This document shows positions 2,032 to 43,580 of a stretch of DNA of 64,000 bases, in pieces. Both the position numbers and the translations under genes were made by a program. The stretch spans positions 22,386-86,385 of the forward strand of contig JAZUOX010000060.1 in the NCBI GenBank assembly GCA_045604905.1. The letters run 5' to 3'. The notes under the pieces are model-generated. The model ran no database searches and had not been told where the DNA came from. It saw only the letters and a list, made by a program, of their open reading frames with translations. The stretch comes from Clostridia bacterium (GTDB taxonomy: Bacteria; Bacillota; Clostridia; UMGS1883). Numbering within the stretch: the first letter of the stretch is position 1; each line of letters begins with the position of its first letter.

Positions 2032-2052
2032 TTATATATGTCCTTTCCAGCT

Positions 2053-2775
2053 TTATAATTTGCTAATAATCAACTCTGCTAACTCATTAGATTTAGCAAG
2101 CAATCCATGAGGATGATGTCCTTGCGAGTTTCGGGGGATAACCGTAAGAAGTTCACTGCATTCTGAATAAGCCTCCTCAAGGAGTTTGCCATTTGAAAAA
2201 TAATCCACAGTCATATCCTCTGTACCATAAAGCATTATGACAGGAAATCTCTTTTCTATAAGTTTGGGAACATTATTTATTGGATTTTCTTCTAACGTGA
2301 ATATATCAGATCTTTTAATATTTGGATAAGCCCGCGTGAATTCTTCATCCCAAATTTTTTCGTATTTATTATATTTTCCAGGAAAATCCAAGAAATTAAG
2401 AACAGGTGCATCTATAACCAAACACGATACTAATTCGGGATAGTATGCAGCAAAATTAACTGCCTGCGCCCCACCACAGCTCATACCAACTAACACGCAT
2501 TTACAATCAAGATTATATTTTTCTGATACATATTGTATGAATCTTGCTTTCATATCACAATTATTTCTGTTTGCCAATCTTGTTTCATTTTTAACATGAA
2601 CAAGGTGGAATCCTCGTTTCAAAAGCTCTATTTCAAGCTCAGGAAATGCATTCCAGTATTCAGTTTTAAATGCAATTCTATTGTTTGAATTTGAATCAGG
2701 AGTAACTACATACCCTATTGTATCTTCAAAGTCAAATTCTTCGCACTTAAAGCCATGAAATAATTTATCTCCCAT
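2053..2775 (-). CDS. Alpha/beta-hydrolase-fold esterase (putative carbohydrate esterase)
   Basis: Nucleophile-elbow motif GMSCGG in a 240-aa ORF with no signal peptide. It sits inside the uronate/xylan side-chain gene block. Confidence 0.6.
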   Translation of the reverse strand: MGDKLFHGFKCEEFDFEDTIGYVVTPDSNSNNRIAFKTEYWNAFPELEIELLKRGFHLVHVKNETRLANRNNCDMKARFIQYVSEKYNLDCKCVLVGMSCGGAQAVNFAAYYPELVSCLVIDAPVLNFLDFPGKYNKYEKIWDEEFTRAYPNIKRSDIFTLEENPINNVPKLIEKRFPVIMLYGTEDMTVDYFSNGKLLEEAYSECSELLTVIPRNSQGHHPHGLLAKSNELAELIISKL

Positions 2776-2795
2776 AAATTGTTCTCCTTATATGA

Positions 2796-15694: not shown

Positions 15695-15698
15695 TGTT

Positions 15699-20510: not shown

Positions 20511-22598
20511 TTATTCTCCTAACATATTCATAACGGCTACACCTGCACCAAGAACTATACCTACGCCGTGGTCGTCATTTGTGATTGTACCAAGATCAAG
20601 GTAGTATTTTTCTTCCTTATTACAGCCTGAACCCTGACATACACCGTAAACGTTACCTTCACTGTCAACGCATTTTTCACAAAGGGCGTTCCACGCTTCA
20701 ACAACAGTGTCTTTGATATTTTCATCAAGCCAACCAAACTTTACGCCACGCGCAAGTGCAGTAATAAACATTGCACTGCCGCTTGTTTCAACATAACTGT
20801 CGTGATTGTTTATAACCTGATGCCAGATACCTTCATTTTTGTCACGACACTTAAGAACACCGCCTGCAAAATTGCGGAATATTTCCAGAATTCTTTCTCT
20901 GTCCTTATGACTTTCAGGCATAAGCATAAGAAGCTCACTCATAGCAAGGAGCACCCAACCGTTACCTCTGCCCCAGGGAACTCTGTTTGCAAATTCTTCC
21001 GGTGGGAAGAAAATGTGTGAGTATATGTTCTGATCGTGCATATACATTCTTTCCCAAAATCCGAAAATCTGTCTTGCAGCTTCGTCAAAATACTTTTCTT
21101 CGCTGAATATTGCACCAAGACGTGCAAGGAACGGAAGACACATATACATATCGTCTGTCCACATTGTCTTTCCGCGGTGGAATGTACCGTCGGGGAATCT
21201 TGGAACATTGGTCATCATTCTGTCAGCCATCAGTTCTATAAGACGTTTCGCATTATTGTCTCCTGATATAAGATAGTATTCGCAAAGAGTTATACCGAAT
21301 GTTCCGATAGAATCAAGGTTATTGAAGTTGGCAGATGAAGAAAGATATGATGAATATCCCGACACTCTATTATCGTGTGCTGCGTAATCACGGTGCTTTG
21401 AGATAGTCTTTCCGAAAGATATGTAGTAATCGTAAAAATCTCTAATATCAAGTTTTGCTGCAGTCTGCCTCATACCTTCTATACCTACCATAATGGCATA
21501 GAACCACTGTCCCCAGAAGCTTGTTTCAACGTTCTGGCGAAGATAGGTGCCCTTACGGTAGAAATTCCAGTAGCAGGTTTTTCCGCAGGCTGAAGGCATA
21601 GGCTCTGCAAAATCAAGCTTCATTTCAGGAACATAGGGGTAGCTGAAGGGATCTGTTTCTCTTCCGAAAGGTCCCGTCCATATCCACTGAAGGTCGGGAC
21701 AGGTATCACCTGTTACAAATGAAAGCTGCGATTCGCCGCCGGCAGTTGCGGTAAATCCCCATTCTTCTCCTTTTGCGCTCTTTATAAGAAGGTGTGTAAA
21801 ATCTTTAAATTCAGCCTCATACTTCCCTTTTTCTTCCGATGTGTAAAGGGTCTTTCCTTCGCTCATTATCTTGATAGGTGACTTATGCTCGATAACAAGC
21901 TTACCCTTATATTCTGTATATACATAAGCGGCTTTACCATCATTTTCACAAAGCGAGGCAAAGTCAAACTCTTTTACATTTGACTGCTCCGGCTTTACCG
22001 GGAAAACCCAGTCGATATTTTCAAATGTAGGCTCAAAAACTTCGTCCTTTTTATAAAGACGTGAATGTCTGATTACTGACTGCCCTTCAAAGCCGTCGTC
22101 ATCGATATACATTCTTGTGCAATAAACGTAGCTTCCTGCACCCATACGAAGTCCGGGAATGAGGATACGAATGGCACCTTCAAAACCATCTTCGTCCGCT
22201 ACGAGCTTTACTACAATACGGTTTTTACCCTTTTTGAAAAGGATATCCGCATCAACTGCAGGAATATTTCTGAAATCTCCTTTGTGAGTGGGAATTTTTT
22301 CACCGTTAAAGTACACTTCTGCATTTTTATTCTTAGCTATATTAATTATAAGCTCTCTATCATATGGACCGTCTGCATCAACGCTGATAAAAGCGTAGTC
22401 ACCTACCTCGTAAGAGGGAAAAATCTCGCTGAAATCAGGTCCCGCCTTATGAATAATATCCATTTCCTTGTAATAAGGGAACGGATGGTAATAAACCTCA
22501 CTCTTTCCTCTTGTTTCAAGCATATGATCATAGATTTTCCTTAAGACTTCTGCATTTGTAGACGCAACAGTTCTGATGGATTTCTCGCAGTATTTCAT
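20511..22598 (-). CDS. GH105-type unsaturated rhamnogalacturonyl/galacturonyl hydrolase with a ~330-aa N-terminal extension
   Basis: The C-terminal ~360 aa carry the WGRGNGW motif and (alpha/alpha)6-type signatures of the GH105/GH88 YteR family. There is no signal peptide. A GGAGG ribosome-binding site is present. Confidence 0.7.
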   Translation of the reverse strand: MKYCEKSIRTVASTNAEVLRKIYDHMLETRGKSEVYYHPFPYYKEMDIIHKAGPDFSEIFPSYEVGDYAFISVDADGPYDRELIINIAKNKNAEVYFNGEKIPTHKGDFRNIPAVDADILFKKGKNRIVVKLVADEDGFEGAIRILIPGLRMGAGSYVYCTRMYIDDDGFEGQSVIRHSRLYKKDEVFEPTFENIDWVFPVKPEQSNVKEFDFASLCENDGKAAYVYTEYKGKLVIEHKSPIKIMSEGKTLYTSEEKGKYEAEFKDFTHLLIKSAKGEEWGFTATAGGESQLSFVTGDTCPDLQWIWTGPFGRETDPFSYPYVPEMKLDFAEPMPSACGKTCYWNFYRKGTYLRQNVETSFWGQWFYAIMVGIEGMRQTAAKLDIRDFYDYYISFGKTISKHRDYAAHDNRVSGYSSYLSSSANFNNLDSIGTFGITLCEYYLISGDNNAKRLIELMADRMMTNVPRFPDGTFHRGKTMWTDDMYMCLPFLARLGAIFSEEKYFDEAARQIFGFWERMYMHDQNIYSHIFFPPEEFANRVPWGRGNGWVLLAMSELLMLMPESHKDRERILEIFRNFAGGVLKCRDKNEGIWHQVINNHDSYVETSGSAMFITALARGVKFGWLDENIKDTVVEAWNALCEKCVDSEGNVYGVCQGSGCNKEEKYYLDLGTITNDDHGVGIVLGAGVAVMNMLGE

Positions 22599-22727: not shown

Positions 22728-25700
22728 TTAATTAGTAAGTTCTGCCGTAACAGAAGCTATTTTTATATCTGAAGACCCATTGATTGTAAAATCAGTCTTT
22801 AAGCGTTCCATATTGTCAAGGCACGCACCTGCAATGTTAAGAGTAACTGTTTTAAGCGCCCCTGTTCCCGTACGGGGTATTTTTTCAGTATTCTTAACAA
22901 GGCGGTTTCTTGTTTCCCCAATTTCAAAAGTATAATAGGTAAAGTTAAAAGAGTCTGTACCCTCGTCAAGATAGGTGATTGTCACCTTTACATTGCCCTC
23001 CGGCTGATATGCGACTTCATTCTTGACATTTACACGCATAATGTTGCCTTCTGGAAGATTGTAAAGAGTCTTTCCATTGTGTGAAACTTCACTTACTTCA
23101 CTGTCACAGCCCGCATAGCTGAAACTGTCGCAGCTGTCTGAAAGGTCATACCATCCGCCATCAGGTGCATTTTCGATTATATCCGATACATCTGCCCATC
23201 CGATTCTTATAATCTTACCAGTTTCGTCATAGTGGCCGAACCACACCTTTGTACCGTCAATGTTAAATGCGGGATGACAGTGTCCGGGGTTAACGCCTGT
23301 CTGCTTTACTCTTGCAACAACGTGACTTACACCTGTGTAACAGTCAATAAGCACTATGTCTGAATATTCACCGTTGCTGTACCCTGTATCTGCTACTGCC
23401 CAGCGGTTACTTACGGGACTTGTTGCAACGTGGTTATATGCATAGTCACTGTTTATGTAATTACGTTCTGTTCCGTCATATTTAATGGAAACTATACCTG
23501 GATAACCGATTGCGGAACTACCCGAAGATTTATGGAACACAATATGCTCGCCGTCGTAGGACCACATTTCGTGACAGGCAATTTCCCCTGCAGATTTCGC
23601 TGAATAGAATCTTGGAACAAATACATTGTAGTATTCGTCAGTATCTGTATTAAGAACCCACAATCTGTCGTTTACGGAAGTACCTTCGTGACAAAACAGG
23701 AGAAGATTTGGCTTTACGGGGTTAATCGAAACGTGATTGGGGTCATACCATTCTGTATCAAATACATAGTTGTGGCTTAAATCCCACTCGCCCGTCTTAA
23801 GATCAAGAATCGGGAATCTTGACCCCTCTGAAAGGAGCTTATCGTTCCATTCCACGGAAAGCTTTTCCTCTGTATCCATTACCTGAAGCATTCCTGCATA
23901 GTCTGCATATTCTTCCGGAATGACACCCACAACCCTTTTCTCGTAAGTGTCAATATCCATACGGATAATTTCACTGTTGCGGTTAATGTAGAACAATCCG
24001 TTAAGAGGCGTTGTTACAACATTATGCTCACGCTCACATGTGTCAATATACTTTACACTGCTTGTATTTATATCATACTCATAAATTTTAAAGTTATCGT
24101 CGCGGACGAAGAACTTATTTCCATCTTTTGACCAGCCCTGCATAGTAAAGTAGCTTCTTATCATATTTTTGCCGTTAAAGTCTACCCAGTTATATGTCCT
24201 ACCTGAAATAGGACAAGTCATCTCTCCTGATATAACTTCACGGTTAAGCTCATTTTTAAAGCAAAGCTGTTCTATGTAAGGATGAGCAAAATTCTTGTCA
24301 AAAACATATACTTTGACAACCGAAAGTTCCGGATACGGCGACAGTTTGAAATCTTCGAATATAAGTTCTTCTGCAGTTGAGCTGTCTGTATCAAGGTCAA
24401 TTGACTTAAGCTTGATATTTGTCATTGTCGATCCTTGATATTCACAAACTGCAACGCTTACCTTCTTTACTTCTTCCGTCTGATTATAAAGACGGACATT
24501 TACATCAATACTTCCGTCAAGTGCTTCTTCAATAGCACCGATGATTCTTCCGTCTGATGAGAATATACTGTTTGAAACAACATCCCCTGCAGCTGTATAT
24601 GCGGCAAAATTATCAAATGAAAGCTGACCTGACTGTGTTCTGAAGTTTGTAAAACGAATATCCTCAACGTTATAAAGTGCCTGGTCTTTTCTTGTAACAC
24701 ACTCTAAAAGACCTATGGGAGCCTCGTTAATTTTCACCCCGTCAATAAAATAGTCTGCCGTCTGGGTTGCTGTATTAACCTCAATTCTGAGAGTGAACCA
24801 TTCATCAAGCACAGGAGCTGTATTCATAAGGTAAATGCTTCTTACTGTACCCTTATCATCCTGACGTCTTGCAAACATAAATTCACGGTAACCCTCGTAA
24901 TAGAAACAGCAGTCAACAATCTGTGCCCTTTCTTTTGTTCCGTCAGGCAAAAGATAGTTTCCGTACATATGGAAGAAATAATACTGTGGCGTATCTGAGT
25001 GATTAAATTTCAGGTCCGTTTCAAAAGCCACTTTGTGCTGAGATGTTGTAGGGAATTTGTACTGAATAAATTTCTGCGACCCGCTTGTGCCTTCACGCCA
25101 TGTATGCATAATGTGATTTTTGTTTTTATCGACTTCTAGCGCTGTTTTATAAAGTGCGTCACTGTATGTTGTTATTCCCATTTGAGAGTCAGTAATCTCA
25201 TGTATTCCCTTTCCTACACTTTCGGGATAATAGAAAGAATCTGAATAATACACTGCCTTATCTTTTGAAAGAACTCTGTACTCAAGTTCCTTGTCTATTG
25301 AAAACTCTTTTCCTTTTTGTGAAATCGATGCAGTAATTGTAACAGCGGTATCTTCTATAGGACGTTTTACAATACCCACGCCTTGCTCGCTGTCAATATC
25401 AATAACAGAAGGATTACTACTCTCAAAGGTGATTTCTACATCTGAAAAATCAATACCTGTAAGCTTTGCATAATTAAAATCAAGATTTTTTGTTACATGA
25501 TTTACGGACTCTGCCGTAAACACTTCCGGATTAAATCTCTTTGCAATGTTTGATATTTTGCTGTATTCTTCATCGCACAAAACAGTGTAAACAAGCTCTT
25601 TTGAAATTGACGCTCCATTCTTTTCAAGAGTAACGGTAAGCGTTACAGTTGAATCATACTTATCTCTTGTGACCGTGCCGTCTTCAGACAGAATATTGCT

Positions 25701-28025
25701 GTTACTTGATAAATAAGTTACTGTTATGTCATTATCAGAGATATATTCAGCCCATTTGTGATTTATTAAATCAAGGTCGGTGGTAATTAAATCTTTGTCT
25801 TCTGATGTAAAATCAGTTTCTTCAAGATTATTGTACAGATAGAATATTTCAGGATTTTCATTATACCACCGTGGGTTATCTGTAATACTTACATCATCTA
25901 TAAAAAGGTTTCCCTTGCCGTACTGACGGAATGTATTGAATTCAAAGTCGTTGTAGCCCATAAATTCTGTTCTGTCAACAGAGGGATTAAGAACATCGTT
26001 AAAATGAATGGGTTCACTGTTAACCTTTACATCATTTATGAAAAGGTCAAGAGTCAATGAGTCTTCGTAATATCTCCATTCAAAGTCTGCCCACTCGCCC
26101 ACTTCCGGCAAATAATCCTTTGAAAAATAAATTGTTTGGCTTTTTTCACCGTTATGAACGGGCATGTAAATGTTGTATGCACCGTTGGCTTCATATCGGA
26201 AGTTTGTTTCATTCAGCCATACACGTTTGTTTTCACCGTTCACCTTAAATATTCCGTATGTTCTGAACACATAAATCTGCGGTGCGTCAGCATGCTCAAA
26301 CTTCATACGCATGCGGTGAATAATGTCACCCTTTGGTTTTTCACCAAGAATGTAATAAGTGCTGTTGCCTTCCTCCATTCCTATAGGGCGATATGAATGA
26401 AGCAGATACTTCTCATCCTCCACATCAATATAGCTTTTAAATCTCTGCCCGGAAGTTGTGTCCTCGGAAAGCTGTGTTGCATATCTTGAAGACCAGCCGT
26501 ACGTTCCCGAAATCGGAGGTGTGACATTTGTTTCCGAACGTATTATTCCGGGAACATCGTAAAGTATCATTCCTTTGCCTTCGGGATAATAAAAGTTTTC
26601 CGACATATGTACCTTTGTAGTTTGTCTGAGAACTTTAAAGTAAAGTTTATTTGTCCAACTCTTTCCCTCGCCATTTACAGTTGCAGTAATTTCCACGGGG
26701 GTATCACGGTAAAGGTCACGGGTAACGTAGCCAGTATTTTCACTTATAATAATAGCGTCGCTATTACTTGCAAATGTTACGGTATAACCATCAGGAAGGA
26801 AATTCTCCGGATTAAGGTCAAGATTTTCTGTTATAACATCTCTTGGCTCGTTTGTAAGCATTTCTTCAGTTACATTAAAATGATCCAAGTCATTTTCTTT
26901 TATACTAGTTACAGATAAATCATCTATATATACTTTTCCGCCTGTAAATGTACGGAAAATGTTAAAGTCAATATCATTTATATCCACAAAATTCGCACGG
27001 TCTGCACCCTCTTTATCTCTTTCGTAGAAGGGTATGCTTTCCGTCGTTACTTTTGCGTCGTTTATGTACATATCCCAAATTTGGGCATCTGTGTCAATAA
27101 GCCATTCAATCTTTGCTTCTTCCCCAACCTTGGGCATATCTTCTTTTTTAACGTAAGCGGACTTAACTTCACTGCCGCTGTAATAGGACATATAGGTTGA
27201 GGATGCACCGTTTTGGTCATATTTATAGTTTATTTCAAAAATGCGTGCTCTTTCATAAGCGCTGTCTACATAATAATTACCGAAAGCACGGAATACGTAA
27301 ATCTGTGTGCCCGGTTCGTGATCAAATGTGACATCAGCCTTGACGGACACCTTGCCCGAAGGTTTGTCACCGAATACATAATGTAAAAAGTTATAGTCGC
27401 TGTCTACGGCAACATCACGGTATGCATTAAGGAAATAGTCACCGTTTACTTCATCTGTAATTGCTTTGAATCTGTTTGCCGCTACGCTGTCACCTTCAAG
27501 CTCTGTTGCAAAGGCGAATGCCCATCCCTCTTCTGTGTCTCTTGTAGGCGATGGTATAGTTTTACTTATTTTAAGAGATCTTTCCTCTGTGAAAAGTTTT
27601 CCTTTGTTATTAGGATAATAGAAATTCTCCGACATATGGGCTTTTGTTGTCTGTCTGAGAACTGTAAAATTAAGTTCTTTGGTAAAAACTTTGCTACCAT
27701 CACTTACTGTTGCTGTAAGTGTTACCGGTATATCATGGTAGAGGTTGCGCACAACATGCGCAACCTCACCATCAATTGCTATGGCGTTAGAGTTACTTTC
27801 AATGCTTACGCTGACACCTGCGGGAAGAATATCGCTTAAATCAAGGTCAAGATTCTTTGTTATTGCATCTGTAACCTCATTTGTGAGCATTTCTTCGCAA
27901 ATGAGTTCCGCAAAAGAAGCTGCATCACTGCCTGCTGTGTAGCCATCCATTGGCATACATCCGCATACAAGCACAAATGCACATATTATTGACATAATTC
28001 TTCTGTAAAGCTTTGAATGTAACAT
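22728..28025 (-). CDS. Giant secreted 1765-aa multi-module protein with a PL22 (oligogalacturonide lyase-like) beta-propeller domain
   Basis: Signal peptide. Four [Ig-like ~80 aa + ConA-like jelly-roll ~250 aa] modules. The C-terminal region carries the PL22 motifs LLLFCHEGTSVNDRLWVLN, CHEMWSYDGEH and NPGHCHPAFNIDGTKVWF. A terminal ~110-aa domain with the VTITYLDEG motif is shared with two other proteins in the cluster. Confidence 0.7.
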   Translation of the reverse strand: MLHSKLYRRIMSIICAFVLVCGCMPMDGYTAGSDAASFAELICEEMLTNEVTDAITKNLDLDLSDILPAGVSVSIESNSNAIAIDGEVAHVVRNLYHDIPVTLTATVSDGSKVFTKELNFTVLRQTTKAHMSENFYYPNNKGKLFTEERSLKISKTIPSPTRDTEEGWAFAFATELEGDSVAANRFKAITDEVNGDYFLNAYRDVAVDSDYNFLHYVFGDKPSGKVSVKADVTFDHEPGTQIYVFRAFGNYYVDSAYERARIFEINYKYDQNGASSTYMSYYSGSEVKSAYVKKEDMPKVGEEAKIEWLIDTDAQIWDMYINDAKVTTESIPFYERDKEGADRANFVDINDIDFNIFRTFTGGKVYIDDLSVTSIKENDLDHFNVTEEMLTNEPRDVITENLDLNPENFLPDGYTVTFASNSDAIIISENTGYVTRDLYRDTPVEITATVNGEGKSWTNKLYFKVLRQTTKVHMSENFYYPEGKGMILYDVPGIIRSETNVTPPISGTYGWSSRYATQLSEDTTSGQRFKSYIDVEDEKYLLHSYRPIGMEEGNSTYYILGEKPKGDIIHRMRMKFEHADAPQIYVFRTYGIFKVNGENKRVWLNETNFRYEANGAYNIYMPVHNGEKSQTIYFSKDYLPEVGEWADFEWRYYEDSLTLDLFINDVKVNSEPIHFNDVLNPSVDRTEFMGYNDFEFNTFRQYGKGNLFIDDVSITDNPRWYNENPEIFYLYNNLEETDFTSEDKDLITTDLDLINHKWAEYISDNDITVTYLSSNSNILSEDGTVTRDKYDSTVTLTVTLEKNGASISKELVYTVLCDEEYSKISNIAKRFNPEVFTAESVNHVTKNLDFNYAKLTGIDFSDVEITFESSNPSVIDIDSEQGVGIVKRPIEDTAVTITASISQKGKEFSIDKELEYRVLSKDKAVYYSDSFYYPESVGKGIHEITDSQMGITTYSDALYKTALEVDKNKNHIMHTWREGTSGSQKFIQYKFPTTSQHKVAFETDLKFNHSDTPQYYFFHMYGNYLLPDGTKERAQIVDCCFYYEGYREFMFARRQDDKGTVRSIYLMNTAPVLDEWFTLRIEVNTATQTADYFIDGVKINEAPIGLLECVTRKDQALYNVEDIRFTNFRTQSGQLSFDNFAAYTAAGDVVSNSIFSSDGRIIGAIEEALDGSIDVNVRLYNQTEEVKKVSVAVCEYQGSTMTNIKLKSIDLDTDSSTAEELIFEDFKLSPYPELSVVKVYVFDKNFAHPYIEQLCFKNELNREVISGEMTCPISGRTYNWVDFNGKNMIRSYFTMQGWSKDGNKFFVRDDNFKIYEYDINTSSVKYIDTCEREHNVVTTPLNGLFYINRNSEIIRMDIDTYEKRVVGVIPEEYADYAGMLQVMDTEEKLSVEWNDKLLSEGSRFPILDLKTGEWDLSHNYVFDTEWYDPNHVSINPVKPNLLLFCHEGTSVNDRLWVLNTDTDEYYNVFVPRFYSAKSAGEIACHEMWSYDGEHIVFHKSSGSSAIGYPGIVSIKYDGTERNYINSDYAYNHVATSPVSNRWAVADTGYSNGEYSDIVLIDCYTGVSHVVARVKQTGVNPGHCHPAFNIDGTKVWFGHYDETGKIIRIGWADVSDIIENAPDGGWYDLSDSCDSFSYAGCDSEVSEVSHNGKTLYNLPEGNIMRVNVKNEVAYQPEGNVKVTITYLDEGTDSFNFTYYTFEIGETRNRLVKNTEKIPRTGTGALKTVTLNIAGACLDNMERLKTDFTINGSSDIKIASVTAELTN

Positions 28026-28039
28026 ACTGTCACCCCGAA

Positions 28040-30763
28040 TTATTTAATGACTACCACACAGTCATTGATATAACCTGAATATCTGTAAATATACATTGTC
28101 ACACCATTGTCAGTATATGTGTAGTCTCCGTTTTCATCAAGTGATGCACTTACGGGAACGTCCAGGTATGTGCCCTGTCTTACTTCCCAATTCACATAGT
28201 CAATGACTACCGGCTTTGGTCCGTTTCCTATTGTATGAGCTCTTACAGTTGCACCACGGTCTGTTGAAAGCACAACCGCTAAATCGTTTCTTGCATATAC
28301 ATGACCGTAGAATACGCCTTCACCCGTATCTTCGTTACCTGTTATTGACTGGAAAGGCGCTGCGTCGCTTGTTCTTACGCGCAACTGAGCTTCAATAATA
28401 TTGAAGTTCTCATCAACTTTGATTGCTGCAATATCACCGAATTTAAATCCACCCGGAACAACACTGTCGATAACACCGGGACGCTCTTCGCGGAATGTAT
28501 ATTCCTCATCCTTATATCTTCCTGTTACCATATAAATCTCTTCACCGTCAGCATTTGTACCTTTAACACTCTTTATTACAGTCATAGCCTTTGGAAGAAA
28601 ACCTGTACCGGATTGCGAAACAACTTCTACTGCACCTGTTGTCCAGAATTCATCTGCATCATACATTCTTACATTTGACCTTCTTGCAAGATCGTAAAGC
28701 TTTTCATGAGGAATTACCTTAATATAATTCTCGTCAAAGTTTTTATCTTCCGGAACAAGGAATATTGTTGTATTTTCATCCATACGGTACTTTCCGCTCA
28801 TAGAATTACGTTTTGCATTATAATATTCTGAGTAGCTTCCGCTGGGTGTTTTATATACAAGGCAGAATCTTGTGGGGTCAAAACCGGTTGTTTTCGTACA
28901 TATTTCAGCATCTGTGGTTGTTTCAATTTCTTTAAGCTCACCTATTGCGCTAAATTTTACTTTTACAATCTGTCTTCTGAAATCACCTGATGTATTTCCG
29001 TCAACATAGAGGTCTGTTTCTGCGAGTAGGTCTTCACTGTTTTTAGTTGTAACACCGTTTATTGTAATTTTCTTTGCTGTTGCAACTGTAGCGACATCAC
29101 CTGTGTTAAGGCAAAGCTTTATAAGACATCTGCTTGAAAGCTTTGCGTTTTTGTCTTTTCCGGCATCAAGGAAGTATGCATACTGGAACTGATCTTTGTA
29201 ATTTTCAACACCTGCGATCCTACCCTGGAAGTCAAGACGAAGCGTAACCTCTGATTCAAGCGCAGGTTTAACAAAACCTTTTATATTATTTTCAACATTT
29301 TTAATGAATGTTGCACTGTATTCGTAAGGTGTCTCAACCTCTTCACCTTCAACCATATGAGTTACAGTTATAATTTCCTCATCGTCTTCATTGGTTTCAA
29401 TACCTGAAACTCTGCAATCAACCTTGTCTTCTGAAACAATGATTTTAACTCTTGCGTCATCTTTACTTGCAAATACTGAAAGCACACTGTTGGATTTAAG
29501 AAGAGATATTGCTTTTGTTTCCCCAAGTGTTGTGAGGAATTCATACTTATCATATTCTCCGTACTTAATCTCGTTACCGTTACTGTCAGCAACAAGCTGG
29601 CTTGCCTGATTGTTTGTAAGAAGCAGATAGTTTTCAAACTCTTCAGCAATAACTACATCATAGGTACTGTCAAGGTCAACATCGACAAAAGTAAGTGTAC
29701 CTGATTCAATTTTCATATCATCCACAAGAAATGCCGGATAAGAACTTCCGTTGTATATAAAGTCAGCAAAAGGACTTACTTCCACATCTATTTTCTTATT
29801 TTTTACCGTATATACAACATTTGTTTTTGTGAAGTCAGGAGATTCAACATCTAGGTCTTCTGCTTTTACAGTAAGAACTTTGTTCCTTGCGTCATCTTTT
29901 ACTACATAGAGGAGCTTGTCTTCATCTGCATCGTAATACGCGATAACATTATAACCTACAAGTCCGTCTGTATTTACAGATTCGTTTACCAATTTCTTTT
30001 TGCCGATAATTGCAGTTTTTCCCGGATACACTGTTGAACCTTTAAGATTAGTGATACCGTCATCCATAAACTGTGCTCTCATCTTTTTTATGTTGTGATA
30101 TACATCGAGAACAGTTTTGCCTTCTGTCACAGCATATGTAATATACTTACCCTTAACAGCGAGAATATCCATTACCTCAACTTCACAAGCTTTGGCAAGC
30201 ATATTCACTATGTTATAACGTGTAAGATACTCAGTTCTTCCGGGACTGTTCAAAAGACCGAGATCAATTGCTACTGAATAGTAGCCGTTGGGGTACCCTC
30301 CTCTTGAATTTGCGATACCCTCATATCCAAGAACTGAAATTACAGTTTTTACAGCCTGGTCAAGTGTAACAAAATCATCCGGTCTGAATTTGCCGTCAGA
30401 TCCAACCATAAGATTGGCTACACCTACAGAGTAAATGTGCTCTCTGAACTGTGTTGATTCACCTACATCTTCATACTTGAGCTCTGCACTGAATGTTTTT
30501 TCATCAAGATCACAAAGTCTTGAAATTGCACTTGCAAATTCACCCCTTGTAACATTATTTATATGGTCTGTATTGGGAGAAACCCATATTCCCACTGCAG
30601 TAAGGAACTCAATGTTCTTTTTATAGGTTTCAATCTGTGCTTCTGTGTATTTTGATTCTTCGACAGGAGCTTCGGTTTCTTCTGCTGCAAATACTGAAAA
30701 TGCAGATGCAAACATAAGAATTGCCATAATAATTGAAATTGATTTTCTAAATATTTTATTCAT
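28040..30763 (-). CDS. Secreted 907-aa cell-surface protein with N-terminal SLH-like repeats
   Basis: Signal peptide MNKIFRKSISIIMAILMFASAFSVFA. Degenerate SLH-type segments (NVTRGEFASAISRL, FRPDDFVTLDQAVKTVISVLG). The large C-terminal region is unassigned. Confidence 0.55.
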   Translation of the reverse strand: MNKIFRKSISIIMAILMFASAFSVFAAEETEAPVEESKYTEAQIETYKKNIEFLTAVGIWVSPNTDHINNVTRGEFASAISRLCDLDEKTFSAELKYEDVGESTQFREHIYSVGVANLMVGSDGKFRPDDFVTLDQAVKTVISVLGYEGIANSRGGYPNGYYSVAIDLGLLNSPGRTEYLTRYNIVNMLAKACEVEVMDILAVKGKYITYAVTEGKTVLDVYHNIKKMRAQFMDDGITNLKGSTVYPGKTAIIGKKKLVNESVNTDGLVGYNVIAYYDADEDKLLYVVKDDARNKVLTVKAEDLDVESPDFTKTNVVYTVKNKKIDVEVSPFADFIYNGSSYPAFLVDDMKIESGTLTFVDVDLDSTYDVVIAEEFENYLLLTNNQASQLVADSNGNEIKYGEYDKYEFLTTLGETKAISLLKSNSVLSVFASKDDARVKIIVSEDKVDCRVSGIETNEDDEEIITVTHMVEGEEVETPYEYSATFIKNVENNIKGFVKPALESEVTLRLDFQGRIAGVENYKDQFQYAYFLDAGKDKNAKLSSRCLIKLCLNTGDVATVATAKKITINGVTTKNSEDLLAETDLYVDGNTSGDFRRQIVKVKFSAIGELKEIETTTDAEICTKTTGFDPTRFCLVYKTPSGSYSEYYNAKRNSMSGKYRMDENTTIFLVPEDKNFDENYIKVIPHEKLYDLARRSNVRMYDADEFWTTGAVEVVSQSGTGFLPKAMTVIKSVKGTNADGEEIYMVTGRYKDEEYTFREERPGVIDSVVPGGFKFGDIAAIKVDENFNIIEAQLRVRTSDAAPFQSITGNEDTGEGVFYGHVYARNDLAVVLSTDRGATVRAHTIGNGPKPVVIDYVNWEVRQGTYLDVPVSASLDENGDYTYTDNGVTMYIYRYSGYINDCVVVIK

Positions 30764-30782: not shown

Positions 30783-32519
30783 TTAATATTTTAATAATCT
30801 GTAGATTAACTGCGCAGCCTGTGCTCGTGTGAGTTTTCCACCGGGCTGGAATTCAGTTTCTGTCATACCGGTTATTACTCCGGCCTTTGTAAGTGTTTCT
30901 ACACTTTCTTTTGCATAGTCAGCTATCGCAGCATCATCACTGAAAGTTTTTCCTGCACCTTCCTCAAGTTCAATGCCTTTGTATTCAATAACTCTGTCAA
31001 GCATTACAGCAGCATCCTGTCTAGTTATAGGCTGACCTATACCGAAAGTGAAATTATCCTGACCTTTTACAATGCCTTTTTCCTGCGCACTTGCAACATA
31101 AATGTTCGCCCAGTGTCCGAGAAGGTCTGTGTATATTGTAAGAGCTTCTTTATTGTAAAGGCCAAATGCCATTACATACATCTTTACAAATTCTTCTCTT
31201 GTAACATTTGCATCAGGATCATATCTGTTAGTAGCAACACCGTCAATTACACCGATACTATGGAGTTCATTTACTGCAGCAAATGCCCAGTGACCCTTTG
31301 GTACATCGTTAAATATGCCGCCTACAGGAGCTTCGGGAAGTATTGACATATTAGCATTTGAATTGTGAAGAGTATCTTCTACATCCCGTATCTCTGTTTT
31401 GTCATCTTTTACAGTAGCACCGCCACCGCCACCGCCGCCACCGCCACCGCCGGAGGAGGGTTTCTTGCCTGATTCCTTTTCTGCATTCTTTATAACTTCT
31501 TCAAATGCATCTGCAACTTCTTTTGAAAGAACAAAGTTTCTGCCAACAAATGTCTTGTTGATTTCTCCTGCGCCATACTTATCACAGGCTTCTTCATAGT
31601 CCTTTTTGTCAATACCGAAGTATTCGATATATTTTTCAACAGTAGTACCTACATTTGTCGCATTGAGCTTGTTGAAGTTTGCCATTGCGATACTCTGGAA
31701 AAGGTCGTCTTTTACATCACCGATAGTTTCAGGACTGCTATCCTTTGAGTTCTTGTAGAAAAGTTTATACACATCTTCTTTCTTTTCTGAATAGTCCCCA
31801 TCTTCCACATCGAGAGTAAGAAGAACACTTTCATCTTCACAAATTTCTTTGCATCTTTCTTCTGTTGTAGCTTCATTAAGGTCACGGATAAGCTGAACAC
31901 CTGAAAGAATATTCATAACTGTGCCCATATCATTACATTGGTTATCATAGTCTTCTTCACGGATATTAAGGAAAAGGTCACAAATTACATCTGTGTTCTC
32001 CGCAAAATCAGTTTTGTCGACTGAAAGCATATCTGCCTTTTCTGAAAGAAGTGCTTCTATTTCTGCACGATCTGCAGTTTCAATTGCAGGAAGTGTAACC
32101 TCATCTATATAAGTCTGGCTTTCAAAGTATATTTCCGTTGTATCCTTTGAAACTGCTGCTTTTGTACCATTACCGGAAGCAGCTATTACAATATAACCTG
32201 CAGGGTCATCCTCTGCGAGCTGTACTTCTTTTTCTACATATCCGCTGCCGTCTGTTTTAACCTCAAGCGCGCGCACAAAATCAGCGGGCGAAGATACCGC
32301 AGTTTCTTTTTCGTACATTACAATTGAAATTTTCTGCACATATTTTGCAGGGGTAGTAACCTGAATTGAAACTACTGATGTATCGTAGTTTACAGATGCG
32401 GTCACCTCAAACTCTGTTTCTGCCGAAACGCTAAAACACATCATTGAAAGTGTCATAGTGCATACAACAATCATACAGAGGATTTTTTTAACATTATTCA
32501 TATCTGTAACTCCTCCCAA
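30783..32519 (-). CDS. S-layer homology (3x SLH) cell-wall-anchored protein with a poly-Gly linker
   Basis: Signal peptide. A G12 linker. Three canonical C-terminal SLH domains (FNDVPKGHWAFAAVNELHSIGVIDG..., ...ITRQDAAVMLDRV..., ...LTRAQAAQLIYRLL). Confidence 0.8.
   Translation of the reverse strand: MGGVTDMNNVKKILCMIVVCTMTLSMMCFSVSAETEFEVTASVNYDTSVVSIQVTTPAKYVQKISIVMYEKETAVSSPADFVRALEVKTDGSGYVEKEVQLAEDDPAGYIVIAASGNGTKAAVSKDTTEIYFESQTYIDEVTLPAIETADRAEIEALLSEKADMLSVDKTDFAENTDVICDLFLNIREEDYDNQCNDMGTVMNILSGVQLIRDLNEATTEERCKEICEDESVLLTLDVEDGDYSEKKEDVYKLFYKNSKDSSPETIGDVKDDLFQSIAMANFNKLNATNVGTTVEKYIEYFGIDKKDYEEACDKYGAGEINKTFVGRNFVLSKEVADAFEEVIKNAEKESGKKPSSGGGGGGGGGGGATVKDDKTEIRDVEDTLHNSNANMSILPEAPVGGIFNDVPKGHWAFAAVNELHSIGVIDGVATNRYDPDANVTREEFVKMYVMAFGLYNKEALTIYTDLLGHWANIYVASAQEKGIVKGQDNFTFGIGQPITRQDAAVMLDRVIEYKGIELEEGAGKTFSDDAAIADYAKESVETLTKAGVITGMTETEFQPGGKLTRAQAAQLIYRLLKY
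31423..31452 (-). repeat. (GGN)n triplet microsatellite encoding the poly-Gly linker
   Basis: The plus strand reads caccgccaccgccaccgccgccaccgccaccgcc, and the repeat is in frame within the SLH protein. Slippage here would change only linker length. Confidence 0.6.
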
Positions 32520-32520
32520 A

Positions 32521-35427
32521 TCACTTAACTTCTTTTACGAATACATCGCGGATAAACGCCTTTGACTGAACACCGCTTAACTTAAAATCTGCACCAAGCT
32601 GATACATATTCTCGAGATTCATATGATGTATTGTAAGCTTTGCCGTTTTCCATTTACCTGTATTATTACGCTGAATATACTCTACTCTCGGACGGAGCTT
32701 ACCAATGCCTTCGTAATAGTAGTCGGGGTGATTTTTCTCACGTTTTGCGTAGGTACTGATGTTTTCCCATTCAAAATAATCAAGCCTTATTGGGAAATAA
32801 CCGTTGTCCAAATATTCAATCTCAATTTCTACTGAGGTTGATTCCTTTTCAAGGTAGTCGGTTTTAACCTTAACTTCCATATAGTTATTCTTGGGTATTT
32901 CGTAATATGTACCCTTATCATCCTTATGCTCAAGCATAAAGTGGTCTTCGCCCTCGTAACTATAGGTTGAGCAAGCTTCGTTAAGGTCAATCTGACCGCC
33001 GGGAGTGGGATTTTCTGTAATGTCGCCTACGTAAGCCCAGCCGACTTCAACAGTCTTATAGTCTTCACTCCAGAGACCGAAGAACGCAGTCTTTGCATCC
33101 CAGCTGAACTGCGGATGCGAATGTCCGGGGTTATTACCCTTTGTATGGTTTACAATAACTTTTGACCAGCCTGCCTCTGTATCCATAAGTACAAGCTTTG
33201 TAAAACCGTTTGCACTGTCGATACCAACGTCGGAAATAAGCCAGCGGTTGGAGTTAAGTGCTGTTGCACAGTGTGAATAATCGTAGTCACCGTTTACAAG
33301 GTAACGGTCCTTACCGTCCCAACGTGCAAAGTAAATACCTCTTTCTGTGGGAGTTTCTGTTTCAGCACCCCAGTTGTAACGGATTTCGTCGTGATGACCG
33401 TGTCCGCGGACTGTAAGAAGATACTCACCATCTGCAAGCCAGTATTCGTGAACACCTGTTTCACCTGTTCTTTCTGGTGAATACTTTTTCTGAGGGAAGC
33501 CTACCCATCTTTCACCTGTGTCAATATCCATAACCCATGTTCTGTCATTTACATGTGCACCCTCGTGACAATAGAACACAAGATTTTTCTTTACGGGGTT
33601 CTGACAAAGATGTCCGGGATAAGTATAGTCGGTTACAAAATCCTTTGAAAAATCAGGTATGAAAATATTTTTCCAGATATTATTTTCGATATCGTACTGA
33701 TGTATTGAACCGCCCTGGTCCCTTATTTCCCAATAGCGGGCATCACGTACACCAATTGTAAGTGCCGTTTCGTTAAAGTCAACCTGAAGCATTACACCTG
33801 TTGAAAGAGATATATCCTGATATGCATCGGGAAGGTGTACTACAACAGTTTCTTCATATGTGTCAAGATTAATCTTACAGATTCTTGAATACTGATCAAG
33901 ATACCACAGATTATTCTTTTTTGTCAGGCAGAAGAAATGCTCAATACCGGGTCTACCACTGCACATATACTTAACCATATAGGTTTTCATATTGTACTCA
34001 TATATGTTTGAGTTTTTATCACGGAAATAGAAGCGGGTATCATCATAGGATGTCATAGGCATCGTATAATAGTTCTTAATTGCGTTTTCTCCGAGAAGAT
34101 TAATTGTGTAATATGTTCTTCCTGTTTCGGGGTCGTAGTGTTCTTCCGGAGGCATATAGAATTCACCCATTAAAAGCCAGTTGATAAGGCTTGAGTCCCC
34201 TGTTTCTCTGAATGTATCAACTGTTACTCTGCCTGAATTGTAAAGGTCTGAAAGATAACACTTTTCTGTCTTTAAATTCTTTAACGGAAGCATATTGTTT
34301 GCAAATGCAACAAGATTATCCATCAGAACTTTCTTTGTAGGCTGGAATACCATATTACCAGAATTTATAAGATTAAGTCCAGCCACAACTGTAAGGGGAT
34401 TTGTCTTTACAGCCGGATCTTCAGAGCCCATAAATGCTGCGTACCACTCACAAAGTTCACTCTGTGGAAACATCTCTTTGGCGCCGAGGGTACCGCCTGT
34501 GTTCTTTATGATACCCAGGCTTTCTGCCATACCCACATAGGGTTTATATTCCAGAGATACATCAGTAAATGAGCAAGAAAGATTCTTTGTTTCAGCCTCT
34601 TCCTTAAGACCTGCAAACTGAATGATGTACTTAAGTGCTTCTTCCCTTGTAAGCTCTTTTCCGAGAATTGCATCTGCATTCTCTGCACTGTACTCATCGA
34701 AAAGTCCGAGTACTTTAAGAGAGTTAGCTGACTTTGAGTTAAAGAGGTCGAATGTTTCCTCACCTGCGTTACGGCTGAGGTTTGTAACCTCAATCTTTGA
34801 AAACGCGTTGTAACCACCGGTTACAATACGGATGTCTCCACCGTAGTCCATTGCCTGACGGAAGGATGCATCAGAAATGTAAAAGGTACATTCCCACCAC
34901 TTTGCTTTTTCATAACGTTCTTCCTCGGTACCGCCCTTGGGGTCACCCATTTTAAGAACGGAGATACGTCCGTAAGTATCGGTTGTGCCCGGAATGGTGT
35001 AGTCAAAATGAATATAACCTGCACCACCGAAGTCATAATAGTTAAACGTTATTTTATAGGTTGTATCTTCCGGAGAACAGAATGACGGATCAAAGCGAAG
35101 ATACATAATATTCTGATAATAAACTTTTCTTCCCACAATACCTTTAAGATTAATCTTTTCATTGTATGTAACGTCCGTGAGAGTTGTTTTGCCGAATCCG
35201 TCTTCAAATGACATCTGATTTTCCTGCGCAGTATCTGTGAAAATGATGTATGCGTTATTCTCATCAACAGGTGTCGTCTGCTTGATTTCTACCTGAGGCA
35301 TAATAACAGGATTTTCACGCACTACAACCGATGCCGCCTTTGCCTCGGGAGGAGCAACATTAACAACAGTTACTGCCATAATTACCGCCAGCAAGCATAG
35401 AAGACCTTTCTTGAATATTTTTTTCAT
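32521..35427 (-). CDS. Secreted 968-aa SLH-like-domain protein with a PL22 (oligogalacturonide lyase-like) beta-propeller and the shared C-terminal domain
   Basis: Signal peptide MKKIFKKGLLCLLAVIMAVTVVNVAPPEAKA. SLH-like segment (LTREEALKYIIQFAGL...FTDVSLEY). PL22 motifs VFYCHEGAHVNDRTWVMD, VHEYWLADGEY and NPGHSHPQFSWDAKTAFF. C-terminal IEIEYLDNG domain. Confidence 0.7.
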   Translation of the reverse strand: MKKIFKKGLLCLLAVIMAVTVVNVAPPEAKAASVVVRENPVIMPQVEIKQTTPVDENNAYIIFTDTAQENQMSFEDGFGKTTLTDVTYNEKINLKGIVGRKVYYQNIMYLRFDPSFCSPEDTTYKITFNYYDFGGAGYIHFDYTIPGTTDTYGRISVLKMGDPKGGTEEERYEKAKWWECTFYISDASFRQAMDYGGDIRIVTGGYNAFSKIEVTNLSRNAGEETFDLFNSKSANSLKVLGLFDEYSAENADAILGKELTREEALKYIIQFAGLKEEAETKNLSCSFTDVSLEYKPYVGMAESLGIIKNTGGTLGAKEMFPQSELCEWYAAFMGSEDPAVKTNPLTVVAGLNLINSGNMVFQPTKKVLMDNLVAFANNMLPLKNLKTEKCYLSDLYNSGRVTVDTFRETGDSSLINWLLMGEFYMPPEEHYDPETGRTYYTINLLGENAIKNYYTMPMTSYDDTRFYFRDKNSNIYEYNMKTYMVKYMCSGRPGIEHFFCLTKKNNLWYLDQYSRICKINLDTYEETVVVHLPDAYQDISLSTGVMLQVDFNETALTIGVRDARYWEIRDQGGSIHQYDIENNIWKNIFIPDFSKDFVTDYTYPGHLCQNPVKKNLVFYCHEGAHVNDRTWVMDIDTGERWVGFPQKKYSPERTGETGVHEYWLADGEYLLTVRGHGHHDEIRYNWGAETETPTERGIYFARWDGKDRYLVNGDYDYSHCATALNSNRWLISDVGIDSANGFTKLVLMDTEAGWSKVIVNHTKGNNPGHSHPQFSWDAKTAFFGLWSEDYKTVEVGWAYVGDITENPTPGGQIDLNEACSTYSYEGEDHFMLEHKDDKGTYYEIPKNNYMEVKVKTDYLEKESTSVEIEIEYLDNGYFPIRLDYFEWENISTYAKREKNHPDYYYEGIGKLRPRVEYIQRNNTGKWKTAKLTIHHMNLENMYQLGADFKLSGVQSKAFIRDVFVKEVK

Positions 35428-35441
35428 ATTTATCCTCCTTG

Positions 35442-37067
35442 TTATCTGGCGTCATAGAAACGGATAGATTTAACTCTGAGAGGCTGACCGTTTGTTGAAA
35501 TGATTATATCATCCGTAGAAATGGGAAGATTCTTACCAATTGCAAATTTCGCATCGGAAAGCTCAATTCTTGCAGTCTTCCATTCGCCACTGTTTGTAAG
35601 AGAATATGTAGCCTGAGAATTACCGGATGTACTCATATAGTCAAGAACGATATCTCCTTCCCCTTCGTCGAGGTATTCAATATCCACATTAACTCTTTTT
35701 ACTCCGTTAAGTCTTGTGTCGGTGATATCAAAATCAAATGATTCTGTCTCGTCAATTTCGATACATTCTTCTCCGTCTATCTCCACAACCTCTGCCTGGT
35801 CCATATAAAATACCACTTCACGGATTTCGGGAACATCTTTCATACGAAGACCTGAAGGATCACCGTCATAGTCGCTTCTTCTTGAAACGGCTACGTTTGA
35901 AACCTTAAGCCCGGGAGTGCCCTGCCAGAAACGGAAGTTACCCTGACCTGTACCGTTATCCATATAGTAGTGGAAGCCTGCATCTACAAGGCGAAAGCTT
36001 TCCGTCTTCCAAAGACCTGTACCTGTCTTTGTAAAGCTTGCGCTACCTGTTTTAAGAGTTGTTGCGGTTGAATCTTTTCTTGTGTATGAAATATCAACCT
36101 TTTCTGTATCCTCATCAAAGAATGTGATGTCGATAATCACTCTTTCATCATCTGCATTGATAAGTGCAGGATCAACCTTACAGGTGAAACGGCCAATAAG
36201 AGTTGCGCTGCCGCGAAGGTAATCGGGAGCTACACGGCACGCTCTGCCACCTGCTTCGGCATACTCTGTATAACCGTAACCCTGCTTACTTCCCGGTGTA
36301 GGTCCTGTAAGTTCGGGACGAGCTATTGGAAGCCAGAGCCATACGCCGTTTTCTGTAACTTCTGTTGTGTTATCCGGATCAGTTGTTGACATTTCGATAT
36401 TCGGAACATCTATGGTTGTTACATTGAATTCTGCTGCCTGGGATACAAGACCTTCTCCGTCTATTGCTTCGATAAGATAATTCTTCTGTGTGTTTTTATC
36501 AAGGTCTTCTTCAGCAAATGTTGTCTCATTACTTCCTGATGAAACAAGTATTCCGTCGCTGTATACATTATAAGATGTCACATCGTCAAAATCGTCATAC
36601 GCTGCATCCCATGTAATCTCAAGGTTTGAAGGCATATTCACACTGTCAACAACATTCTGAGGCGCTGCAGGCTCCATATTGTCAAGAGGTGTGCAAAGTG
36701 TAATGCCATCCCAGAGAAATACCTTGTACTCTTCTGTTGAAAGGTCTCCGACTGTAACACCTGCTTTAAGTGTATCACTTACAAGCGCACCGGAAAGTGT
36801 TACTGACTGCGAATCTGTCGCCTTTATCTTTCCGGTATCCTTGTCACACAGCATAACAATAAGCATCACACTCTGCGGTGAAGTGCCGTTAAGATTCGCT
36901 GTTACCTGAGTGTACACAAGACCTGACTGGATTTCAGGAATTTCGTTATCTCCTGCATCCAGATACTTAATATCTGTGAATTCCACTTTTGCGGCGGACG
37001 CCATTGCCACAGGCGCAAGTGAGAGCACCATTGCAAGGACCACCATGGTTGCCAATAGTTTTTTCAT
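35442..37067 (-). CDS. Secreted 541-aa FN3-domain surface protein with the shared C-terminal YLDEG domain; first gene of the operon
   Basis: Signal peptide MKKLLATMVVLAMVLSLAPVAMASA. FN3-like segment (APQNVVDSVNMPSNLEITWDAAYDD...). C-terminal VDIEYLDEGEGDIVLDY...NSGEWKTARIELSDAKF. Confidence 0.6.
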   Translation of the reverse strand: MKKLLATMVVLAMVLSLAPVAMASAAKVEFTDIKYLDAGDNEIPEIQSGLVYTQVTANLNGTSPQSVMLIVMLCDKDTGKIKATDSQSVTLSGALVSDTLKAGVTVGDLSTEEYKVFLWDGITLCTPLDNMEPAAPQNVVDSVNMPSNLEITWDAAYDDFDDVTSYNVYSDGILVSSGSNETTFAEEDLDKNTQKNYLIEAIDGEGLVSQAAEFNVTTIDVPNIEMSTTDPDNTTEVTENGVWLWLPIARPELTGPTPGSKQGYGYTEYAEAGGRACRVAPDYLRGSATLIGRFTCKVDPALINADDERVIIDITFFDEDTEKVDISYTRKDSTATTLKTGSASFTKTGTGLWKTESFRLVDAGFHYYMDNGTGQGNFRFWQGTPGLKVSNVAVSRRSDYDGDPSGLRMKDVPEIREVVFYMDQAEVVEIDGEECIEIDETESFDFDITDTRLNGVKRVNVDIEYLDEGEGDIVLDYMSTSGNSQATYSLTNSGEWKTARIELSDAKFAIGKNLPISTDDIIISTNGQPLRVKSIRFYDAR

Positions 37068-43579: not shown

Positions 43580-43580
43580 A

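Follow-up and report, generated by a model that had tools for sequence, protein, structure and literature searches.

The 64,000-nucleotide (nt) stretch of contig JAZUOX010000060.1 from an uncultured gut Clostridia bacterium (assembly GCA_045604905.1; this whole stretch is called the window below) encodes a secreted protein of 968 amino acids (aa) that carries a seven-bladed β-propeller homologous to the oligogalacturonate lyases (Ogl) of family PL22. The propeller keeps the catalytic and metal-binding positions of these lyases, and it shares the polypeptide with a divergent SLH domain and two β-sandwiches. We consider it reasonably probable that the 968-aa protein is a wall-displayed, metal-dependent uronate lyase, whose substrate is a glucuronate-containing glycan and whose partners are a larger paralogue and three non-catalytic proteins.

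The gene and the segments of its product are as follows.

32521..35427, minus strand: gene of the 968-aa secreted PL22-like protein, stop codon included (list of open reading frames [ORFs], orthologues, ratio of nonsynonymous to synonymous substitution rates [dN/dS])
35335..35427, minus strand: signal peptide, residues 1 to 31 (n-region with KK/KK, hydrophobic core, cleavage site between AKA and A)
34762..35325, minus strand: N-terminal β-sandwich resembling a carbohydrate-binding module (CBM), residues ~35 to 222 (AlphaFold2 models, Foldseek, hhalign)
34153..34755, minus strand: divergent three-repeat SLH domain, residues ~225 to 425 (Foldseek, profile, hidden Markov model [HMM], dN/dS)
33013..34152, minus strand: seven-bladed PL22-like β-propeller, residues ~426 to 805
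32524..33012, minus strand: C-terminal β-sandwich, residues 806 to 968, homologous to the N-terminal one (hhalign)

The order of domains, from the signal peptide through the CBM-like sandwich, the SLH domain, and the propeller to the second sandwich, was read from an AlphaFold2 model built on 21 homologues (mean predicted local distance difference test [pLDDT] score of 81) and from a second model restricted to residues 28 to 428 (pLDDT of 85.6). The only Pfam family that matches the protein is PF14583 (oligogalacturonate lyase, PL22), with 25.6 bits and an E value of 6.5e-6 over residues 451 to 673; 8 of the 21 close homologues match the same family at an E value of <0.1. A phmmer search against Protein Data Bank (PDB) sequences was significant only for the two PL22 structures, 3c5m and 3pe7, at E values of about 1e-6. 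The profile of the 21 homologues matches YeOGL (3pe7) with an E value of 7e-24 and spans residues 14 to 368 of 388, which corresponds to the whole propeller. Foldseek also ranks 3pe7 and 3c5m at the top (E value of about 2e-18, template modeling [TM] scores of 0.76 and 0.74), with other, unrelated propellers at 5e-10 or weaker, and the domain thus has the seven-bladed fold of Ogl. The preliminary description of this stretch had named the propeller PL22-like from its motifs, and the profile and fold matches bear this out; they do not place it in an unrelated propeller family devoid of lyase residues. A kinship with the propeller lyases of PL24, PL25, and PL42 was also considered and rejected, as these are absent from the top structural matches.

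The residue correspondence to YeOGL was taken from the family-profile alignment, that is, by sequence. It pairs Arg217, His242, His287, Gln350, His353, and His355 of YeOGL with R629, H660, H719, N766, H769, and H771 of the 968-aa protein, respectively, at the following positions.

33526..33579, minus strand: motif VFYCHEGAHVNDRTWVMD, residues 617 to 634, with H621 and R629 (YeOGL Arg217) (alignments)
33421..33453, minus strand: motif VHEYWLADGEY, residues 659 to 669, with H660 (YeOGL His242) (alignments)
33271..33273, minus strand: H719 (YeOGL His287, metal ligand) (profile alignment)
33112..33132, minus strand: N766-P-G-H769-S-H771-P (YeOGL Gln350, His353, and His355, metal ligands) (profile alignment)

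In YeOGL, His242 and Arg217 are reportedly catalytic, and His287, Gln350, His353, and His355 are said to bind Mn2+; the PDB title of the structure describes a manganese complex. The predicted catalytic pair of the 968-aa protein is therefore conserved as H660 and R629, and the predicted metal site as H719, H769, H771, and N766, with a Gln-to-Asn change at the last position. Among the 21 close homologues, R629, H660, H719, and H771 are invariant, and variation is confined to positions 766 (N, D, or H) and 769 (H or Q). The three most distant of these homologues have the pair swapped to H766/Q769, an exchange that would preserve the ligand set of three histidines plus one amide. This pattern persists in 148 representatives of the wider family, in which H660 and H771 are present in all 148, R629 in 145, and H719 in 144. 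Conservation of the lyase positions, which the earlier description had proposed to check against YeOGL, thus extends through the family.

An exhaustive profile search over 1.84 billion cluster representatives (50%-identity clusters) retrieved 1187 proteins at an E value of 1e-3 or better, of which 147 reached 1e-30 or better. The top matches listed range from ~200 to 1750 aa, include some fragments, and show many architectures. Ten members of the wider family straddle the PF14583 cutoff, from no match to 49 bits, and because of this scatter around the Pfam threshold the 968-type group is, judged on its profile scores, a sister clade at the edge of PL22 rather than a set of canonical Ogl enzymes.

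A propeller with these features might still be catalytically inert or perform other chemistry, as a surface glycan-binding or scaffold protein or with its metal site engaged in a hydrolytic or other reaction, while something else depolymerizes the glycan. β-Propellers are versatile, the 968-aa protein contains two CBM-like domains, its score is below the Pfam PL22 threshold, and some related gene sets have a fifth gene that lacks a propeller. We nevertheless give this explanation only a slim chance, since the base, arginine, and metal-ligand positions of Ogl are near-invariant in the 148 diverse representatives and the propeller is under purifying selection (dN/dS of 0.05 to 0.16), a combination that would be difficult to account for in a domain that only binds glycans. 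Moreover, beyond the two PL22-like propellers, no catalytic module was recognized in the six secreted products of the operon.

The ORF consists of 968 open codons beginning with ATG, and the TAA of the preceding gene lies 14 nt from this start. It is preceded by a strong ribosome-binding site:

35434..35440, minus strand: Shine-Dalgarno sequence AAGGAGG, 7 nt upstream of the ATG of the 968-aa gene (sequence reading)

Orthologues with 81 to 92% identity occur in four metagenome-assembled genomes (MAGs) labeled Clostridia or uncultured Oscillospiraceae. Relative to these, dN/dS is 0.09 to 0.16 for the whole gene and 0.04 to 0.17 per domain, the SLH-like domain (0.045 to 0.125) included. The orthologues and the low dN/dS in every domain show that this is a real gene, constrained over its full length. 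An exact-sequence look-up of the window protein retrieved no matching record. The N terminus reads MKKIFKKGLLCLLAVIMAVTVVNVAPPEAKA, followed by AS after the putative cleavage point, and this reads as a signal peptide for Sec export and signal peptidase I. The assignment is based on the sequence and is supported by the model, which shows a helix at residues 2 to 22 and then low-pLDDT residues 23 to 41. All of the strings quoted in the preliminary description are found in the translation, including, besides the two propeller motifs given above, LTREEALKYIIQFAGL (residues 259 to 274), FTDVSLEY (residues 287 to 294), and NPGHSHPQFSWDAKTAFF (residues 766 to 783).

The segment around the first two of these strings had been described as SLH-like. 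Neither Pfam PF00395, at E values up to 0.1, nor NCBIfam matches the 968-aa protein, and PF00395 matches 7 of the 21 homologues (best E value, 6.6e-5). The homology is thus established at the level of profiles and fold. The 968-type family profile matches the SLH structures of Sap and SpaA, with E values from 7e-5 to 2e-6 for Sap, and the three canonical SLH repeats of the adjoining 578-aa protein are detected by an HMM built from the region. In a Foldseek search with residues 225 to 425, the nine top true matches are all SLH domains of Sap or SpaA (TM scores of 0.60 to 0.68), with scores of 0.64 to Sap 3pyw and 0.63 to SpaA 7sv5 over about 175 columns, for targets of 165 to 178 residues that comprise all three repeats. 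Residues ~225 to 425 are therefore a genuine but degenerate SLH domain of three repeats, and the earlier assignment stands, except that the Pfam model suggested for it misses this protein.

34639..34650, minus strand: T260-R261-E-E, the sole retained TRAE-type motif, in repeat 1 (aligned to TRAE of Sap and SpaA)

In the family, the threonine of the repeat 1 motif is present in 21 of 21 sequences and the arginine in 18 of 21. Repeat 2 opens with F-T-D-V and ends in PQSE, where the family consensus is TQxE and SpaA aligns with TVEE. At repeat 3, the 968-aa protein has LMDN and seven to eight paralogues have TRDN. The motifs of SpaA itself are TRAE, TVEE, and TRAQ, of which TVEE is seen in the alignment. 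With only one of the three TRAE-type motifs retained, the domain may plausibly anchor the protein to the wall. In comparison with the SLH domains of Bacillus anthracis Sap (3pyw/6bt4) and Paenibacillus alvei SpaA (6cwc/7sv5), the three-repeat helical fold is alike and the TREE of repeat 1 resembles TRAE, whereas the domain is internal instead of terminal and the arginine, the ligand-binding residue of the motif, is lost in repeats 2 and 3 (PQSE and LMDN).

The 968-aa gene is the second of five genes that form a cassette in the window.

35442..37067, minus strand: cassette gene 1, encoding a secreted protein of 541 aa that combines an FN3-like module with two recurrent β-sandwiches
32521..35427, minus strand: cassette gene 2, the 968-aa PL22-like protein
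30783..32519, minus strand: cassette gene 3, encoding a secreted protein of 578 aa that ends in three canonical SLH repeats (Pfam SLH E value of 1.4e-31, synteny)
28040..30763, minus strand: cassette gene 4, encoding a secreted protein of 907 aa whose N-terminal part contains an SLH-like region (synteny)
22728..28025, minus strand: cassette gene 5, encoding a paralogue of 1765 aa that contains four aBig_2 stretches and a PL22-like propeller and ends in a β-sandwich

The 1765-aa paralogue scores 36.1 bits with PF14583, above the cutoff, and keeps all of the invariant propeller residues. It is 35% identical to the 968-aa protein over 528 residues (E value of 3e-83), which cover the propeller and the C-terminal domain. 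The two had been called diverged paralogues, only distantly related; the paralogy is real, and the distance was somewhat overstated. A recent duplication of the two propellers was rejected, in agreement with the earlier view, on the basis of the 35% identity and of a tree that groups the 1765-type propellers into a single clade, which diversified alongside the 968-type across the cassette copies. In the 907-aa protein, the SLH-like region is supported by a match to SpaA SLH (E value of 0.002, residues 69 to 187) and a weak match to Pfam SLH.

The sandwiches of the 968-aa protein are homologous to each other (hhalign probability of 96.9%, E value of 1.4e-10), and their likeness to CBM-type jelly rolls is weak; the N-terminal one has weak Foldseek matches to CBM16, CBM11, CBM6, and Cry domain III. 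A sandwich of the C-terminal type also forms the C terminus of the 1765-aa protein, and the 541-aa protein contains two.

The 968-aa gene is also the second in a tightly packed, codirectional series that runs from 37067 down to about 1186, with an AraC-type response regulator encoded divergently upstream. Only the 541-, 968-, 578-, 907-, 1765-, and 966-aa proteins of this operon have signal peptides. The genes downstream, whose products lack them, encode GH88, GH2, a CE15-type glucuronoyl esterase, an amidohydrolase, a GNAT-like protein, several small GH20-like proteins, UxuA, and UxuB. The distal end of the operon lies at 1186..3833 on the minus strand.

20511..22598, minus strand: GH88 (unsaturated glucuronyl hydrolase family), no signal peptide (Pfam GH88 E value of 2e-63)
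2796-3833, minus strand: uxuA, glucuronate catabolism (UxuA Pfam E value of 2e-143)
2053-2775, minus strand: 240-aa α/β hydrolase
1186-2031, minus strand: SDR-type uxuB, D-mannonate oxidoreductase (NF006132, 454 bits versus a cutoff of 281)

A promoter and terminator scan of the region from 20 to 38 kb remained at the level of shuffled sequence (48 versus 48.9 and 12 versus 11.6) and gave no usable operon boundaries. The simplest pathway for this gene set would consist of extracellular β-elimination, import of the oligosaccharides, cleavage by GH88, trimming in the cytoplasm, and glucuronate catabolism, with the GH88 of the window as the expected consumer of the lyase products. The dedicated extracellular uronide-processing step that had been suggested for the two propeller proteins fits this context of GH88, UxuA/UxuB, and the division between secreted and cytoplasmic proteins.

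The same catalytic set could also belong to a classical oligogalacturonate or pectate-type lyase that differs only in being exported, acting on galacturonate-based pectin fragments in a pectin utilization operon. The only characterized relatives are in fact oligogalacturonate lyases, and a downstream unsaturated-uronate hydrolase alone cannot separate a galacturonate from a glucuronate substrate; unsaturated galacturonate and unsaturated glucuronate are the same compound. Identity to Ogl is, however, only 16 to 20%, and none of PL1, PL9, PL10, CE8, CE12, GH28, GH105, UxaA, UxaB, or KduI was seen as a marker of the pectin pathway in the 45 window proteins scanned. The locus contains instead GH88, the UxuA and UxuB of the glucuronate branch, a CE15 glucuronoyl esterase, and GH20-like enzymes, and paralogous cassettes adjoin GH38, GH130, and GH2 mannosidase-type genes. 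A pectin-directed role is therefore unlikely, although it keeps some weight.

Related loci were scanned with one genome per species, which gave 19 loci from uncultured Clostridia, several of them from human gut samples. The gene order is near-constant: a protein of ~540 aa, a PL22-like protein of ~965 aa, a protein of ~570 aa with three SLH repeats, and one of ~900 to 930 aa, with the 541-type gene immediately upstream of the 968-type gene in most loci. A second PL22-like protein, of 1400 to 1790 aa, follows in about half of the loci, and in two cassette types the fifth gene encodes an aBig_2 protein without a propeller. Five gut MAGs carry three diverged cassette loci each, with 25 to 36% identity between copies. 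In a neighbor-joining tree of the propeller domains, all long-type propellers fall in one clade, and at least six cassette types can be distinguished. The short and long propeller types diversify in parallel, which indicates that the cassette was duplicated as a unit. The neighbors differ by copy and include GH88 with an ABC transporter, pairs of GH20b-like and amidohydrolase genes with an MFS transporter, GH130, and a GH2 mannosidase-type gene with an ABC transporter; GH88 recurs beside paralogous cassettes.

These copies bear on a third explanation, in which the cassette is an envelope-maintenance module whose SLH proteins are components of the S-layer or wall and whose propellers trim or reshape acidic material that the cell makes itself (wall polymer, capsule, or exopolysaccharide) and not a nutrient. 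SLH-type domains are present in three of the five cassette proteins, envelope variation could underlie the threefold presence of the cassette in each of five MAGs, and the surroundings of the paralogous cassette at locus L024 consist of SLH proteins and biosynthetic genes and include no carbohydrate-active enzymes (CAZymes). The cassette of the window, in contrast, heads a long codirectional catabolic operon that ends in uxuA/uxuB and lies beside the AraC-type response regulator, and other copies stand beside ABC or MFS transporters, GH88, GH38, GH130, and GH2, a pattern typical of nutrient loci. For the window, envelope maintenance is accordingly quite improbable.

The reading as a glucuronate-directed surface lyase leads to the following mechanism. 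The 968-aa protein would be exported by the Sec pathway and held on the cell wall by its internal divergent SLH domain, which may bind the wall polymer directly or pack against SLH-bearing neighbors. On the surface, two homologous CBM-like sandwiches would flank the Ogl-like seven-bladed propeller, in which H719, N766, H769, and H771 are predicted to bind a divalent metal (Mn2+ in YeOGL) that would neutralize the uronate carboxylate. H660, with R629, would abstract H5, and elimination of the O4 glycosidic bond would leave a 4,5-unsaturated uronate at the new nonreducing end. In this task, the 968-aa protein would work with its larger PL22-like paralogue and the three non-catalytic secreted partners of the cassette. 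The unsaturated oligosaccharides would then be imported and dismantled by the cytoplasmic GH88, GH2, CE15, and small GH20-like enzymes, and the glucuronate released would enter the UxuB/UxuA route.

Several observations weigh against this assignment. The 25.6 bits of the 968-aa protein fall short of the 30-bit gathering score of PF14583, its propeller shares only the low identity given above with the solved PL22 lyases, and the roles of its active-site residues are carried over from those reportedly established for YeOGL by Abbott et al. 2010. A polymer-active, extracellular PL22 enzyme is an extrapolation, because the solved PL22 proteins are small, single-domain enzymes that are cytoplasmic and act on oligosaccharides. 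Only one of the three TRAE-type motifs is intact in the 968-aa protein, and no csaB-like (pyruvyl-transferase) gene, which would go with an SLH domain that binds pyruvylated secondary cell-wall polymer, was seen among the window ORFs scanned; together, these points leave wall binding uncertain. In addition, no sugar transporter is encoded in the window operon, and the cassette at L024 has no CAZyme neighbors.

Characterized PL22 enzymes are cytoplasmic, cleave oligogalacturonates by β-elimination (EC 4.2.2.6), and finish the breakdown of pectin. The two of known structure, YeOGL from Yersinia enterocolitica (3pe7) and VPA0088 from Vibrio parahaemolyticus (3c5m), are single-domain proteins of 376 to 396 residues, whereas the 968-aa protein has four extra modules, is secreted and probably wall bound, and has Asn in place of Gln350. 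Its locus also differs from theirs in pointing to glucuronate-containing glycans (GH88, UxuA/UxuB) and not to the pectin pathway. From its fold and active-site residues, the 968-aa protein probably works like a PL22 lyase, even though it stays below the curated HMM threshold. The PL24 and PL25 ulvan lyases and the PL42 rhamnose-glucuronate lyase also have seven-bladed propellers, with which they cleave X-(1→4)-glucuronate linkages (PMC8377490). They share the number of blades with the 968-aa propeller, and their glucuronate-linkage chemistry is compatible with the window locus.

SLH-anchored CAZymes are known from Gram-positive fiber degraders, such as the pectinases of Monoglobus pectinilyticus and the SLH-xylanases of Thermoanaerobacterium and Caldicellulosiruptor. 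The general design is the same, that is, secreted multidomain proteins with CBM-like modules and SLH domains on the wall of Clostridia, but the catalytic module of the 968-aa protein is a PL22-like propeller and its gene belongs to a fixed, multiplied five-gene cassette. No PL22-like propeller as the catalytic module of an SLH-anchored protein, and no paper describing the 968-type clade, was found in the literature searched.

The side-chain pathway for xanthan in the gut Ruminococcaceae UCG13 proceeds from a PL8 lyase to GH88 and then GH38, with acetyl esterases (10.1101/2021.06.02.446819). The logic is shared, in that the unsaturated glucuronate end generated by the lyase is taken off by a GH88 in the cytoplasm; PL8, however, is an α/α toroid plus β-sheet, and the 968-aa protein has a propeller. 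The window locus lacks the GH38, GH5, and GH94 of that pathway and has GH2, CE15, and GH20-like genes, and because of this different CAZyme set its substrate differs from xanthan. At another locus (L020, 1303-20482), a distant paralogue (P0018, 28% identity) is accompanied by two large GDSL esterases, an ABC transporter, an SLH protein, GH88, and GH38. There, the two GDSL esterases, GH88, and GH38 correspond to the UCG13 set, with the PL22-like protein in the place of PL8. By analogy, this xanthan-like enzyme set may serve as a lead, for that paralogue only. The GH88 proteins of the two loci differ in size: that of L020 has 338 aa and that of the window 695 aa, with an N-terminal extension of ~350 residues before the GH88 match at residues 359 to 692.

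The 968-type clade is distinct and borderline for Pfam, with ~150 strongly matching 50%-identity clusters and large, multidomain members, and the copies examined are secreted and surface displayed. If the lyase assignment is correct, PL22 biology would widen to the initial, extracellular attack on acidic polysaccharides, and enzymes of the clade would be candidates for degrading glucuronate-containing glycans of dietary, host, or microbial origin, about whose degraders in gut Firmicutes little is known. Of greater interest, though less certain, is the five-gene surface cassette, with its conservation and its multiple copies. A tentative proposal, which may well not hold, is that it constitutes a modular, wall-anchored machine for glycan capture and cleavage in uncultured gut Oscillospiraceae, a Gram-positive functional counterpart of Sus-like systems in which at least six duplications of the whole unit were accompanied by redirection to different acidic glycans, and that its propellers are the founders of a new lyase family or subfamily, related to PL22, that acts on polysaccharides and is directed at glucuronate. 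The repeated cassette offers a recognizable marker for polysaccharide loci in uncultured Oscillospiraceae, and we know of no equivalent of the SusC/D marker of Bacteroidetes for these organisms.

Several further features of the window and its cassette proteins were observed. The recurrent β-sandwich occurs in five copies in three cassette proteins (35442-37067, 32524-33012, 34762-35325, and 22728-23165, all on the minus strand), with the pattern xIxIxYxDxG ... GxWKT ... DFRI. It has no Pfam match and may represent an undescribed CBM-like family. Outside its SLH-like region, the 907-aa protein has no detectable family, and its orthologues show a faint match to Pfam SLH. The sixth secreted protein of the operon (966 aa; 11076-13976, minus strand) has a borderline aBig_2 match, with 25.2 bits versus a cutoff of 27, and its N-terminal half is 23 to 26% identical to the N-terminal part of the 1765-aa protein.

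A cytoplasmic protein of ~318 aa is represented by eight paralogues in the window (31 to 67% identity), five of them in tandem.

10010-10972, 15699-16652, 16672-17628, 17631-18590, 18592-19548, 19549-20508, 42629-43657, and 43581-44759, all minus strand: ~318-aa GH20-like paralogues

Their best PDB relatives are the small GH20 enzymes 9fym and 9fyl (E value of 1.6e-8), which are described as lacto-N-biosidase or N-acetyllactosaminidase types (PMC11776370). This local expansion is unusual and hints at N-acetylhexosamine in the substrate. The TTG start codons listed for two ORFs on the minus strand, 14894-15826 and 43581-44759, are probably placed too far upstream, because the former overlaps the preceding gene by 128 nt and the latter, of 392 aa, aligns to its paralogues only from residue 73. 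Two large cytoplasmic proteins on the same strand, of 709 aa (3848-5977) and 667 aa (40597-42600), show weak, subthreshold matches to the GH20b N-terminal domain. The 667-aa protein also matches DUF4838. For the 709-aa protein there is no relative in the PDB, and paralogous pairs of its type are found again beside other copies of the cassette.

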